DNA of 64,000 nucleotides from Escherichia phage vB_EcoM_KAW1E185. The translations under genes and the position numbers were made by a program. The DNA lies in the sequence record NC_054922.1, one strand, 5' to 3'. This document shows positions 3,741 to 63,620 of the stretch, one piece after another (the stretch's first letter is position 1; each line of letters begins with the position of its first letter). The notes under the pieces are model-generated. The model had not been told where the DNA came from and searched no databases. It saw only the letters and a program-made list of their open reading frames with translations.

Positions 3741-4043
3741 TGCGGCAACCTTGTCGGGGTTCCACCTGCTAAGGCAAGTGTTTGTACGAAACGCCGGGAT
3801 TCGAACCCGGTTATTAAGTAGTTGACGCTACTCAATATTTTTAAAAGGCCATATCTCGACCATATCCGAACGTTCCGTCAAAAACGCTACTCGGCTTACG
3901 GCAAAGATATTTCCTCGAATCGATAATTCGGTGCGCCGTTTCTGCTGTGATGTAAGAGGGCATCAATAAACGCAAAGATTATTAACGCAATTCCTTACTC
4001 AGGGAACATCAGTCCGACGACTTACCGGTAGCGACCCGGTTTC
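3741..4043 (-). ncRNA. putative stable small RNA(s), comparable to T4 species 1/2 RNAs downstream of tRNA-Arg
   Basis: No ORF; T-arm-like CCGGGTTCGAATCCCGG; an 8-bp long-range pairing (ACGGAACG with CGTTTCGT) could form an acceptor-like stem; boundaries approximate. Confidence 0.35.
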
Positions 4044-4394
4044 TTAATATTCTTTTAAAGCATCAATCTGTTTACGGCGTTCACGCCATAAATCAATTGC
4101 TTCATACGCGGATTCAGCATTTCGAATTAGCCGGCATTTATGTAAAGACTTATGATTTTGATATTGTGTAGATAACGGAATTTTATCTAAAAGGTCTTTA
4201 CGTTCAAAGTATTCGTAACCATCTAAGCCAAATGAACGATTTTTGAGAAATTGCCAATGACCAAATTCGTTTTGAATATAAATATAATCCGCATGTTGAT
4301 AAAGTAAATTAATTTCACGAAATGAGATATGTTTTTCATATTCATTGAAGTAAAATGTTAAATCATGAACTACTAAATAAACATTACCTTTCAT
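4044..4394 (-). CDS. hypothetical protein, 116 aa, between tRNA-Arg and the stable-RNA region
   Basis: ORF track; no motif recognised. Confidence 0.45.
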   Translation of the reverse strand: MKGNVYLVVHDLTFYFNEYEKHISFREINLLYQHADYIYIQNEFGHWQFLKNRSFGLDGYEYFERKDLLDKIPLSTQYQNHKSLHKCRLIRNAESAYEAIDLWRERRKQIDALKEY

Positions 4395-4412
4395 ATTTTC
4401 CTCACTTATAAT

Positions 4413-4488
4413 TGGTCGAGGCAGTAGGGATCGAACCTACGACCTAGGACTTAGAAGGTCCTTGCTCTTCCTTCTGAGCTATGCCCCG
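4413..4488 (-). tRNA. tRNA-Arg (anticodon UCU)
   Basis: Hand-folded cloverleaf: anticodon arm AGGAC-CTTCTAA-GTCCT, T-loop GGTTCGATCC, encoded CCA. Confidence 0.85.
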
Positions 4489-4492
4489 TAAT

Positions 4493-4568
4493 TGGGGTGA
4501 CCGATGGGAGTCGAACCCATGACTACGAGAATCACAATCTCGAGTTCTACCAACTGAACTACGGCCAC
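4493..4568 (-). tRNA. tRNA-His (anticodon GUG)
   Basis: Anticodon arm CGAGA-TTGTGAT-TCTCG, T-arm ATGGG-TTCGACT-CCCAT, discriminator C, encoded CCA. Confidence 0.8.
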
Positions 4569-4682
4569 ATTAATACCTACTCCAACAATCAAGATGTCTT
4601 CACACGAAATTAAGAGAAGAGTGATCAGTTCAACCCCTATAATCGCGTCAAGTAGATATTAATGTGACAGTTGTCACAAATT

Positions 4683-4757
4683 TGGCGGACGTGATAGGAT
4701 TCGAACCTATAACCAATCGCTTAACAGGCGATCGCTCTGCCATTGAGCTACACATCC
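4683..4757 (-). tRNA. tRNA-Asn (anticodon GUU)
   Basis: Anticodon arm ATCGC-CTGTTAA-GCGAT, T-loop GGTTCGAATCC, encoded CCA. Confidence 0.8.
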
Positions 4758-4761
4758 AAAT

Positions 4762-4848
4762 TGGTGGGGAGTGGTGGAGTCGAACCACCCGAGTCGCAAT
4801 GACAATGAATTTACAGTCCACACCGCTACCTCTACGGGATAACTCCCC
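4762..4848 (-). tRNA. type II tRNA, probably tRNA-Tyr (anticodon GUA); D-arm non-canonical
   Basis: 87 nt; acceptor GGGGAGT/ACTCCCC, loop CTGTAAA, long variable arm, T-arm GGTGG-TTCGACT-CCACC, encoded CCA; anticodon stem has two G-U pairs. Confidence 0.6.
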
Positions 4849-4857
4849 AAATTAATT

Positions 4858-4932
4858 TGGTGGCCCTGGGTGGAATTGAACCACCATCTGGCGATTATGA
4901 GTCGCTTGCTTGAACCTTCCAGCTACAGGGCC
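4858..4932 (-). tRNA. tRNA with anticodon CAU (Ile2 or Met), in the position of T4 tRNA-Ile
   Basis: Acceptor GGCCCTG/CAGGGCC, anticodon loop CTCATAA, T-loop GGTTCAATTCC, encoded CCA. Confidence 0.75.
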
Positions 4933-4933
4933 T

Positions 4934-5009
4934 TGGTGCTGATTGACGGAATCGAACCGCCGACCTTCTCATTACAAGTGAGTTGCTCTACCTACTAAGC
5001 TAAATCAGC
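4934..5009 (-). tRNA. tRNA-Thr (anticodon UGU)
   Basis: Acceptor GCTGATT/AATCAGC, anticodon loop CTTGTAA, T-loop GGTTCGATTCC, encoded CCA. Confidence 0.85.
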
Positions 5010-5014
5010 AAAAC

Positions 5015-5104
5015 TGGCGGAGGCGATAGGATTTGAACCTATGAGTCGCCGGAGCGACTGCCGGTTTTCAAGACCGGTGCATTAAACCACTCTGCCACGC
5101 CTCC
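5015..5104 (-). tRNA. tRNA-Ser (anticodon UGA), type II
   Basis: 90 nt; anticodon arm CCGGT-CTTGAAA-ACCGG, long variable arm, T-loop GGTTCAAATCC, encoded CCA. Confidence 0.85.
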
Positions 5105-5110
5105 AAATAT

Positions 5111-5761
5111 TTATATATTGTTAATTTGATTTAGAATTCTTTTTGCTTGAGTATGACTTACGCCAATATGCTTAGCATATTTAGACAATTCGCCACGTTT
5201 AGAAAAATCATATAATTTAGAAATTTCTATTCTTCTTTTTCTTTCATCCGCAGAAACTTTTGCTTCGTTTGCTTTTGCTATTTTACGTTTAGCTTCTTGA
5301 GAATGAGTTTTACCAGCAAAGCCATTCTTCATTAATCCATTTGAAGACCATCCTTTTAATTTTCCGTTAGAATGTGCCTTTTTAACACCCAATGAAATTA
5401 ATTCGCGTTGCTGATCTGTCATAGGATAATTATTTATATGGTCCCATCCACCTTCACCTCCAAGTTTTAAATTATACACATCTGGTCTATTTAAAAACTC
5501 TTCTGTGACAATATTTTTCTCGGCTTCAAGCATAGATTCTTTATCGTCAAAATACTCTAATATTTCTTTAGAAAAATTTTCTATACCATATTTATCTTGG
5601 GCTCTTTTTAATAATTTACCAGAACCCATATATCCATCATCTAAATTTTCGGTAGAATGCACACCAATATAAATTTTATTATTAATTTTATTTGTTATTT
5701 TATAAAGATAAAAATGCATATCAGTCCCTAATAAAGAACTGAGCGTCTCACGACGAGTCAT
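5111..5761 (-). mobile_element. segB: GIY-YIG homing endonuclease (SegB-like) wedged between tRNA-Gly and tRNA-Ser
   Basis: N-terminal GIY-YIG module YLYKITNKINNKIYIGVHS plus basic C-terminal region; lies inside the tRNA array as T4 segB does; true start may be the internal Met at 5719. Confidence 0.8.
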
Positions 5762-5765
5762 AAAT

Positions 5766-5839
<74 letters not shown>

Positions 5840-5844
5840 AAATT

Positions 5845-5931
5845 TGGTGCGAGAAGTGGGACTCGAACCCACAAGGAAATCATTCCGCAGCATTTTAAGT
5901 GCTGTGCCTTTACCAATTTGACCATTCTCGC
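5845..5931 (-). tRNA. tRNA-Leu (anticodon UAA), type II
   Basis: 87 nt; acceptor GCGAGAA/TTCTCGC, anticodon arm CAGCA-CTTAAAA-TGCTG, T-loop GGGTTCGAGTCCC, encoded CCA. Confidence 0.85.
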
Positions 5932-5932
5932 G

Positions 5933-6005
5933 CTGGGAATAAAGGACTCGAACCTTTGCATCTAGCAGTCAAAGTGCTATGCCTTACCAACTTGGCTAAT
6001 TCCCA
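5933..6005 (-). tRNA. tRNA-Gln (anticodon UUG), no encoded CCA, abuts tRNA-Leu
   Basis: Acceptor TGGGAAT/ATTCCCA, anticodon arm TAGCA-CTTTGAC-TGCTA, T-loop AGGTTCGAGTCCT; only 1 nt separates it from tRNA-Leu. Confidence 0.8.
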
Positions 6006-6091
6006 ATTATTAACAAAGGCTCTCAAACAAGAACCCTTGATGATAGAGGGTATTAATCAGTGCGGTATGAGTTAATAATAACAAATAATTC

Positions 6092-6607
6092 TTAAAGCAA
6101 ATTAAACATTTTAACGGTCGGCAAAACAATTTCTTCTTCTATATAAGAGTATTTAACACTCTCAACTACACGCAAAAAATCATAATCATAATACTCAGAA
6201 GCATTACCTAAAATATTAATAAGTCCTTCAAGCACTTTATTACCATTCACAAAGAATAAGTCAAATACGCGTTCTTCGTCTTCTTCGGATTTATTACCAA
6301 GGTCAACTTCTATATCAAAGACCTTTTTAATGAATTCTGGATAAAGTTGTTCTGAGAACAGTCCTTCAACCAAGTATTCATAAATAAAAAGCGATTGCTC
6401 GCTGAACAAGCCATTACCACAATAACGTTCAGCTTTAGTACTAGAATGTCTACTTTTAAACTTCTTTAAAAGATATTGAAATTGTAAGATTTCATGCTCT
6501 TCTACGCCAAACAGTGTTTTAGTTTTATAGTTGTCACCATCATTTTCCCAGGTAGTGGCATCAATTACGTAACCCTGTGGAATTGTAGTACCTAAACAAA
6601 TATTCAT
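6092..6607 (-). CDS. hypothetical protein, 171 aa, with duplicated GLFSEQ motif
   Basis: ORF track; acidic; lies in the variable locus between the tRNA array and ipI. Confidence 0.5.
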   Translation of the reverse strand: MNICLGTTIPQGYVIDATTWENDGDNYKTKTLFGVEEHEILQFQYLLKKFKSRHSSTKAERYCGNGLFSEQSLFIYEYLVEGLFSEQLYPEFIKKVFDIEVDLGNKSEEDEERVFDLFFVNGNKVLEGLINILGNASEYYDYDFLRVVESVKYSYIEEEIVLPTVKMFNLL

Positions 6608-63564: not shown

Positions 63565-63620
63565 CGTTTTTCCTTTTTGTTAACAGATGAATTAATAATA
63601 ACAAATAATTCTTAAAGCAT

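Follow-up and report, generated by a model that had tools for sequence, protein, structure and literature searches.

A SegB-family GIY-YIG gene of chimeric origin in the tRNA-Pro slot of the tRNA cluster of Escherichia phage vB_EcoM_KAW1E185

The tRNA cluster of Escherichia phage vB_EcoM_KAW1E185 was analysed in a 64,000-nucleotide (nt) stretch of sequence record NC_054922.1, which is referred to here as the window. On its minus strand ten tRNA genes and one open reading frame (ORF) are arrayed in the order Gln-Leu-Gly-ORF-Ser-Thr-Met(CAU)-Tyr-Asn-His-Arg, as found by ARAGORN and in agreement with Rfam. An earlier, sequence-only reading had taken the ORF for a free-standing GIY-YIG homing endonuclease gene (HEG) inserted precisely between two tRNA genes, with its end 6 nt from the 5' end of tRNA-Ser and its annotated start 5 nt from the 3' end of tRNA-Gly. 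Both distances were confirmed: the stop codon (5111-5113) is followed by a 6-nt spacer (5105-5110), and between the ATG (5759-5761) and the CCA end of tRNA-Gly (5766) lie the four nucleotides ATTT (5762-5765), which places the two ends five positions apart. In an Rfam scan of positions 3800-6300 tRNAs alone scored above the threshold; sX4, YrlA and Plastid-ycf2 were sub-threshold, and lay over tRNA genes. The features of the locus are the following.

5111..5761, minus strand: ORF of 216 codons with an ATG start (ORF listing)
5111..5719, minus strand: coding sequence of the homing endonuclease as deduced from homologue starts, 202 amino acids (aa) plus stop
5720..5765, minus strand: 46-nt 5' leader of the mobile cassette, with a spurious in-frame ATG (5759-5761), a hairpin and a weak Shine-Dalgarno sequence
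5105..5115, minus strand: 3' junction, in which TATAAATA (5108-5115) lies over the stop codon and is separated by TTT from where tRNA-Ser begins
5015-5104, minus strand: tRNA-Ser(UGA), directly 3' of the gene (ARAGORN and Rfam)
5766-5839, minus strand: tRNA-Gly(UCC), which ends in CCA and then A, i.e. CCAA (ARAGORN, Rfam, sequence)
5845-5931, minus strand: tRNA-Leu(UAA), upstream (ARAGORN, Rfam)
5932-6005, minus strand: tRNA-Gln(UUG), upstream (ARAGORN, Rfam)
5766..6005, minus strand: the upstream tRNA block Gln-Leu-Gly as a whole (ARAGORN, Rfam, sequence)

The ORF is a real gene, far beyond chance. The 2.4-kb region around it is 97-99% identical to genomes of Tequatrovirus (T4-like coliphages), the closest being QOTSP, AndreasVesalius, KIT03, RB18 and AR1, and in the phage collection approximately 54 records code for a protein with 99% or more identity to that of the window. 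The protein matched the Pfam GIY-YIG family PF01541 with 26.8 bits (cut-off 22.6) and PHROG 314, 'homing endonuclease', with E = 1.5e-55, and in the alignment with T4 SegB that the earlier reading had proposed the N-terminal domain was 83% identical over 117 aa. These similarities support its view that the ORF is a free-standing GIY-YIG homing endonuclease gene, and place it in the SegB family. In GenBank the same gene is variously labelled 'homing endonuclease', 'SegB-like protein', 'segB' or 'segD'. SegB-type HEGs in phage tRNA clusters have been described before; 1,832 homologues showed a significant association with tRNA genes (PMC13096335). A scan of IMG/VR with the window protein returned eight distant loci only, and a tRNA scan of two of these eight found no tRNA in either. 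A literature search yielded no paper that deals with this variant, with how its mosaic arose or with the disappearance of tRNA-Pro.

The description 'inserted precisely between two tRNA genes' holds for the present anatomy only. In HEG-less relatives (Sf21, T2L, T4) tRNA-Gly is followed by a 10-nt spacer, tRNA-Pro(UGG), 2 nt and tRNA-Ser, and a 121-nt probe spanning Gly-Pro-Ser found full coverage in 447 phage records. When the two alleles were aligned, the left flanks matched exactly as far as CCAATTTA and the right flanks from the first base of tRNA-Ser onward, and between them lay either the spacer with tRNA-Pro (~81-86 nt) or a 661-nt cassette. The cassette thus fills the tRNA-Pro(UGG) slot between tRNA-Gly and tRNA-Ser, replacing a gene that about 447 related records hold. 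No tRNA-Pro sequence is left at the 3' junction, local alignment of the cassette against shuffled sequences detected no tRNA-Pro remnant, and ARAGORN found no tRNA-Pro gene elsewhere in the 64-kb window. The same Pro-less arrangement is present in RB18, Ge15, QOTSP and CM8. Within Tequatrovirus the site is therefore polymorphic, with ~54 HEG-containing records against 447 of the Gly-Pro-Ser type and near-identical flanks. Among Klebsiella phages, 121 HEG-less records in which Gly and Pro are contiguous stand against 17-20 carriers, a number estimated from identity bands rather than counted directly.

Within the product, for which residues are numbered from the Met codon at 5719 (see below), the following parts were distinguished.

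5435..5719, minus strand: GIY-YIG catalytic domain, aa 1-95, of the T4/T6 SegB type, with Y6, Y17, G19, E67 and N83 (alignment, AlphaFold2 model)
5426..5441, minus strand: recombination junction between a T6-like 5' part and a Klebsiella-phage-like 3' part (sliding identity, alignment)
5114..5434, minus strand: C-terminal DNA-binding half, aa 96-202, 'beta' type (alignment, AlphaFold2 model)
5276-5320, minus strand: NUMOD3-like helix, aa 134-148 (profile score, AlphaFold2 model)
5117-5251, minus strand: three-helix bundle resembling a helix-turn-helix (HTH), aa 157-201 (AlphaFold2 model)

Sliding DNA identity to T6 was 98-100% over the leader and the first ~290 coding nt. At cassette position ~335-336 the profile switched, and beyond this point identity was ~45% to T4 and T6 and 87-90% to the metagenomic L017 (protein P0002), one of the HEGs of Klebsiella phages of the Jiaodavirus type, of which that of Mineola (YP_010096117) is another. 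The junction falls in ATCATATAAAT, which is common to both parental types and contains TATAAATA at 5431-5438, and in the protein this is where the catalytic domain ends (...GGWDHI/NNYP...). Beyond aa 117 no similarity of the window protein to the C-terminus of T4 or T6 SegB was detectable. Comparisons of this kind show the gene to be a natural chimera, in which a T6-like leader and catalytic module are joined to a NUMOD3-like and HTH-like module of the Klebsiella phage type. If leader, catalytic domain and DNA-binding domain are scored as three interchangeable modules, the genes compared have these compositions.

Window: leader A, catalytic domain I, DNA-binding domain beta
T6: leader A, catalytic domain I, DNA-binding domain alpha
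T4: leader B, catalytic domain I, DNA-binding domain alpha
L017: leader A, catalytic domain II, DNA-binding domain beta
Mineola: leader A, catalytic domain II, DNA-binding domain beta'

The C-terminal half is predicted by AlphaFold2 to consist, in this order, of a long helix and a flexible stretch, the NUMOD3-like helix and the three-helix bundle, with a predicted local distance difference test (pLDDT) score of ~90 for the helices. Profile matches in this half were marginal (NUMOD3 20.1 bits, just below the cut-off of 20.4; HTH_10 E = 0.055), and all Foldseek matches of the bundle to HTH proteins had E values above 1. A motif, SKRG...GVSHTQ.RR, is conserved among the homologues. The element is best described as a SegB-family chimera with a Jiaodavirus-type DNA-binding module, of a kind that is already known and in a gene that is publicly annotated.

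A 133-aa ORF related to this half, trna.1, lies between tRNA-Ser and tRNA-Met in T2/T2L (L025 584-985); it is 41.5% identical over ~65 aa to the NUMOD3-like and HTH-like half of the window protein and is devoid of a GIY-YIG domain. Probably it is either what remains of a Seg-type endonuclease or a derivative of one that stands alone.

The catalytic domain is very similar to enzymes of demonstrated activity. Over aa 1-95 it differs from T6 SegB (AP018814 EcT6_00127) by one amino acid (~99% identity) and is ~95% identical to T4 SegB (NP_049745), both of which are active in vitro (PMC13096335, PMC2330249). Mutation of Y17 and G19 kills T6 SegB (PMC13096335), and both residues are present in the window protein. 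Y6, Y17, G19, E67 and N83, among others, are invariant across 25 homologues. In comparison with I-TevI, encoded by the td intron of T4, Y4-L5-Y6 and Y17-I18-G19 align with Y6 and Y17-V18-G19, N83 pairs with N90, and E67 is within one residue of E75. The AlphaFold2 model had a mean pLDDT of 83, with ~90 or above in the N-terminal domain (87-97 over aa 1-90). A sequence search of the PDB gave nothing at E <= 1; the similarity was found by fold search instead, the top three Foldseek hits in the PDB being I-TevI's catalytic domain (1MK0, 1LN0) with a probability of 1.00 and target-normalised template modelling (TM) scores of 0.64-0.65. The protein shares with I-TevI the GIY-YIG fold of the N-terminal domain and a layout in two domains, in its case with a catalytic domain, a linker and predicted NUMOD3-like and HTH-like elements, but identity is only ~25%, and I-TevI is intron-encoded, has a zinc finger and contains a segment around R27 that SegB-type proteins lack.

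The genomic position of these genes was compared with their DNA-binding modules. Genes of the alpha type are located 5 nt upstream of tRNA-Arg(UCU) in T4, T6 and L032, an unrelated metagenomic T4-like contig, and their left neighbours are tRNA-Ile, tRNA-Tyr and tRNA-Met, respectively. The beta type is found between tRNA-Gly(UCC) and tRNA-Pro(UGG) in Mineola and L017-L019, as precise insertions in the 5-nt spacer whose ORF end overlaps tRNA-Pro by 10 nt. In the window it occupies the vacated tRNA-Pro slot 6 nt upstream of tRNA-Ser, and in the distant relatives L020/21, L022, Erwinia phage FBB1 and L031 it lies directly 3' of tRNA-Pro(UGG), with a second tRNA-Pro on the other side of the gene in L031. 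In a sample that is small and phylogenetically not independent, the pattern fits a position that would follow the DNA-binding module, in line with the I-TevI paradigm that the C-terminal domain picks the site (discussed in PMC2330249). Around the insertion point, the stretch best conserved between the two genera is CTCCGTRTAGCTCAGTYTGGTAGAGCG, the tRNA-Pro 5' half, in which 25 of 27 positions are the same (counted manually from the alignment); the TpsiC arm and the CCA of tRNA-Gly are likewise conserved across the two genera.

This comparison also defines how the window gene relates to SegB proper, with which it shares the catalytic domain but neither of two other defining features, the DNA-binding domain and the position upstream of tRNA-Arg(UCU). 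Positional orthology with T4 segB, as stated in the RB18 record ('location conserved in T4'), was rejected, T4 segB being located between tRNA-Ile and tRNA-Arg; an equivalence with T4 SegB holds neither for the position nor for the DNA-binding half. A close counterpart is T6 segB, which lies in a tRNA cluster, is co-oriented, and follows directly after a tRNA CCA end and ATTT, as the window gene does. However, its C-terminal half is unrelated, its product has 221 aa compared with 202, and it is situated between tRNA-Tyr and tRNA-Arg whereas the window gene is between tRNA-Gly and tRNA-Ser. T4 SegB is also a free-standing GIY-YIG HEG in a tRNA cluster, and T4 lacks tRNA-Asn, the gene with the preferred site, which is found in T2L; this parallels the loss of tRNA-Pro from the window. 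It differs by its leader, its C-terminal domain and its Ile/Arg position. T4 SegB recognizes the TpsiC motif GGTTCRANTCC and cuts 3' of CCAR. In SegB proper the C-terminal domain determines recognition of this motif, and cleavage takes place at the 3' ends of tRNA genes and leaves a 2-nt 3' overhang. The Klebsiella Jiaodavirus-type HEGs have the same leader type and the same NUMOD3-like and HTH-like module and are likewise placed directly after tRNA-Gly(UCC), but their catalytic domain has diverged (~70% DNA identity) and tRNA-Pro is kept.

Taking these observations together, we consider it probable that the window gene, a chimera in the tRNA-Pro slot, is functional as a free-standing SegB-family HEG of the GIY-YIG type and homes at the Gly/Pro junction. 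In a mixed infection the enzyme would cut the HEG-less allele at or near the junction of the tRNA-Gly 3' end and tRNA-Pro, as suggested by T4 and T6 SegB and by the position of the gene; repair from the HEG-containing genome would then copy the cassette with nearby markers and erase tRNA-Pro, and the carrier would be protected since the tRNA-Pro side of the site is gone. The cassette starts right after the CCAA of tRNA-Gly, and T4 SegB prefers to cut just 3' of CCAR (PMC2330249). Biased inheritance in co-infection has been shown experimentally for T4 SegB only (PMC2330249); by analogy we infer that the present variant may be inherited preferentially.

For expression, the gene would be transcribed within the tRNA precursor from a middle promoter upstream of tRNA-Gln. 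A candidate was found about 70 nt upstream of this tRNA:

6075..6099, minus strand: T4 middle-promoter-like motif (MotA box TGCTTTA, 12-nt spacer, TATTAT)

The pattern TGCTTYA-N11-13-TANNNT has 11 matches in the window compared with 2.3 expected, and the whole tRNA/HEG transcript is likely to be driven by the motif at 6075-6099. The 46-nt leader is devoid of promoter motifs, and a scan for sigma-70 promoters and terminators yielded counts no better than in shuffled sequence. T4 segB lies in a 1.75-kb tRNA primary transcript (PMC2330249). The co-transcription with the tRNA precursor that the sequence-only reading had considered probable is, from the motif, the leader and the T4 precedent, the likely mode. 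Translation, in turn, would be restrained by a Shine-Dalgarno sequence that is weak and would be masked by a hairpin in the leader. The predicted hairpin (5721-5742) has 9 bp and a folding energy of -14.1 kcal/mol, contains the Shine-Dalgarno sequence AGGGA in its 3' arm, and is kept in T6, L017 and Mineola with three pair-preserving changes, among only three distinct sequences. RNA structures that sequester the ribosome-binding site are the usual control in the I-TevI family, and occlusion by a hairpin has been proposed for T4 segB (PMC2330249, PMC2988022). T4 segB and the window gene presumably have in common that they are expressed from the primary transcript of the tRNAs and that a hairpin covers the ribosome-binding site; that of T4, at -19.4 kcal/mol (z = -7.6), is by far the stronger of the two. 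Sequestration in the window leader is plausible but weakly supported.

Several observations weigh against one or another part of this reading. The leader hairpin is only modestly steadier than shuffled sequences (z = -1.95; 10 of 200 fold as well), and the changes at the three stem positions that vary are purine transitions on one side only, facing U, which lend it weak support. The predicted target, the Gly/Pro junction of HEG-less phages, is deduced from position only, and two of the eight sampled beta-type homologues (L023 and L030) are not beside tRNA-Pro. Furthermore, tRNA-Gly is intact in all HEG-containing genomes, and if recognition were wholly in tRNA-Gly, as that of T4 SegB is in tRNA-Asn, deletion of tRNA-Pro would give no immunity. 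The loss of tRNA-Pro may have occurred during homing or by a later deletion, and no origin was found for the 14 nt ATATATAAATATTT at the 3' junction. Finally, R27 of I-TevI sits in a 9-residue segment that is absent from the whole SegB subfamily and is not alignable, and the alignment of 25 homologues contains no invariant Arg; the missing segment is nevertheless not a sign of decay, because the active T4 and T6 enzymes lack it too.

In a different explanation, which we regard as unlikely, the gene would be a co-opted anti-defence tool: breaks in the tRNA array would drive recombination-dependent segmental amplification or reshuffling of tRNA and anti-defence genes under tRNA-cleaving defences, and homing would be secondary. 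The leader and the catalytic domain differ from those of T6 segB at very few positions, T6 SegB is needed for the amplification of tRNA-Tyr under Septu pressure (PMC13096335), and related clusters differ by gain or loss of whole tRNA genes beside HEGs, as seen with T6 (without Pro and Ser), T4 (without Tyr, Asn and His) and CM8 (without Gln). On the other hand, the DNA-binding half is unlike that of T6 SegB, and the relaxed TpsiC-motif specificity behind the T6 amplification is not to be assumed for it; moreover, homing classically leaves a clean presence/absence polymorphism at a single site, as is seen here in two genera. An anti-defence role and a homing role are not mutually exclusive.

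HEGs often degenerate once fixed, and the gene could be a decaying or inactive HEG, neutral and non-cutting, or a mere spacer or processing context in the tRNA precursor. Some relatives are labelled 'truncated SegB-like protein' (RB68, vB_SsoM_113), trna.1 of T2L, a probable remnant, has the DNA-binding domain only, and the NUMOD3 score is just under the Pfam threshold. The 202-codon frame of the window gene is intact, however, with all family-invariant residues there, and in an alignment examined for the disruption of GIY-YIG residues expected of a pseudogene, the catalytic motif was intact. The ratio of nonsynonymous to synonymous substitution rates (dN/dS) relative to L017 was 0.12 for aa 1-95 and 0.22 for aa 96-202, and relative to T6 it was 0.035 for aa 1-95. 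By this measure the coding sequence is under purifying selection, and the gene is not a pseudogene. Taking into account also that the catalytic domain is one amino acid away from an enzyme proven active, T6 SegB (PMC13096335), and that the element, at a frequency of ~11%, is not fixed, decay is very improbable.

The product is a 202-aa protein encoded by 5111-5719; several lines of evidence indicate that translation almost certainly starts at the internal Met at 5717-5719, residue 15 of the ORF. T4 SegB, T6 SegB and the Mineola and L017 proteins all begin at the equivalent of this Met, 24 more distant homologues start there within a few residues, and the GenBank annotations of Ge15 and CM8 use a 609-nt coding sequence. 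The numbering of the catalytically dead T6 mutant, Y17A/G19A (PMC13096335), fits a start at 5719, and a weak Shine-Dalgarno sequence, AGGGA (5725-5729), precedes this AUG by 5-6 nt. These findings bear out the suggestions made from the sequence that the internal Met is the real start, that it brings the GIY-YIG motif (Y4-L5-Y6 ... Y17-I18-G19) close to the N-terminus, and that there is no room for a ribosome-binding site before 5761. It is hardly credible that translation begins instead at 5761, immediately behind tRNA-Gly and with no Shine-Dalgarno sequence, and yields the annotated 216-aa protein as the true product. The ATG there opens an uninterrupted frame in register with the gene, is conserved in T6 and is used by GenBank annotations such as those of RB18 and QOTSP, but it has no purine-rich sequence upstream, with the acceptor end of tRNA-Gly only 4 nt off, the upstream codon is GTG and an extra T shuts the frame in Mineola and L017, and the 14-residue extension has no homologue, so that the start at 5761 was rejected.

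The leader upstream of 5719 has a single difference from that of T6 segB over 46 positions, and its identity to the Klebsiella-type leaders is ~87%. The same leader is found in front of T6 segB, where it follows tRNA-Tyr, and in front of the Klebsiella HEGs, and it is therefore part of the cassette. By eye, the leader resembled a decayed 5' half of tRNA-Pro (GCTCAGTT, TTAGGGA). This interpretation was rejected: the local match between leader and tRNA-Pro consists of one 8-mer, and an equal or better score was obtained in 233 of 500 shuffles of the whole cassette and in 64 of 1000 shuffles of the leader.

Other observations on possible control signals were made. The octamer TATAAATA, the exact T4 late-promoter consensus, occurs twice in the cassette on the minus strand and is enriched in the window (26 matches compared with ~10 expected). 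The copy at 5108-5115 overlaps the stop codon, 3 nt before tRNA-Ser, whereas the copy at 5431-5438 is exactly at the module junction and is followed by the in-frame Met100. These candidate sites could be late promoters, for the downstream tRNAs or for a product consisting of the DNA-binding domain only, or could have arisen by chance. A 33-nt repeat (32 of 33 positions identical) is present at 6067-6099 and 63587-63619, both on the minus strand, and contains the MotA-box/-10 motif TGCTTTAAGAATTATTTGTTATTAT; the same promoter module therefore occurs at two loci ~57 kb apart, one of them upstream of the tRNA cluster. In the distant homologues L020 and L022 two other ways of restraining translation were noticed. 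In L020 (1449-1500) TATAAATA directly precedes a hairpin in which GAGGATAT, the Shine-Dalgarno sequence, is paired to ATATCCT, and in L022 (1496-1503) the start codon is a TTG located 2 nt beyond the tRNA-Pro CCA, for which GGAGA in the acceptor stem acts as Shine-Dalgarno sequence.

The rest of the cluster is variable as well. In CM8, a Shigella phage that carries the same SegB-like gene, an HNH endonuclease gene (L028 1574-2182) occupies the tRNA-Gln slot, and tRNA-Tyr, tRNA-Asn and tRNA-His are also absent; this is a further case of a nuclease gene displacing tRNA genes in the cluster. Flanked by the tRNA cluster and trna.2, a 171-aa ORF on the minus strand (6092-6607) has counterparts in Sf21, RB18 and CM8 and none in T4, T6 and Ge15, and constitutes a second presence/absence polymorphism at the edge of the tRNA array; its 3' end is overlapped by the middle-promoter-like motif. 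The CAU-anticodon tRNA at 4858-4932 (minus strand) is 'Met' according to ARAGORN, RB18 and Ge15 annotate it as tRNA-Ile (Ile2, with lysidine-modified CAU), and T4 has tRNA-Ile at this position. In the otherwise tightly packed array a 114-nt gap (4569-4682) separates tRNA-His from tRNA-Asn, also in Sf21, RB18 and Ge15. The gap holds the palindrome TGTGACA-GT-TGTCACA; ARAGORN found no tRNA and Rfam no family at E <= 0.1 in it, and it may represent a tRNA that has decayed or an element that serves in processing.

On its own, the window gene is an ordinary, already annotated phage homing endonuclease gene of modest value. For annotation, its start should be placed at 5719 rather than 5761, and the public labels 'segB, location conserved in T4' and 'segD' are misleading. 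It also offers a natural specificity experiment, in which one catalytic module is combined with two unrelated DNA-binding modules and the position tracks the latter, and from which a new target site can be predicted and directly tested, the tRNA-Gly/tRNA-Pro junction. We put forward only tentatively that a domain swap retargeted the SegB catalytic module from tRNA-Asn/Arg to the tRNA-Gly/Pro junction and that the variant spreads by overwriting tRNA-Pro(UGG). If this were true, each DNA-binding module would 'own' a particular tRNA junction, and natural chimeras would map how GIY-YIG specificity is reprogrammed by C-terminal swaps at the conserved ...GGWDHI(N) junction. Homing here would carry a cost for the carrier, as it would remove tRNA-Pro(UGG). 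Together with CM8, where an HNH gene stands for tRNA-Gln, and with T4 and T6, the window suggests that nuclease genes shape phage tRNA repertoires; if true generally, the T-even tRNA repertoire would be set largely by the traffic of modular SegB-type nucleases and not by the needs of codon usage. Such shaping of the repertoire is relevant as phage tRNAs are now seen as countermeasures to tRNA-cleaving host defences.

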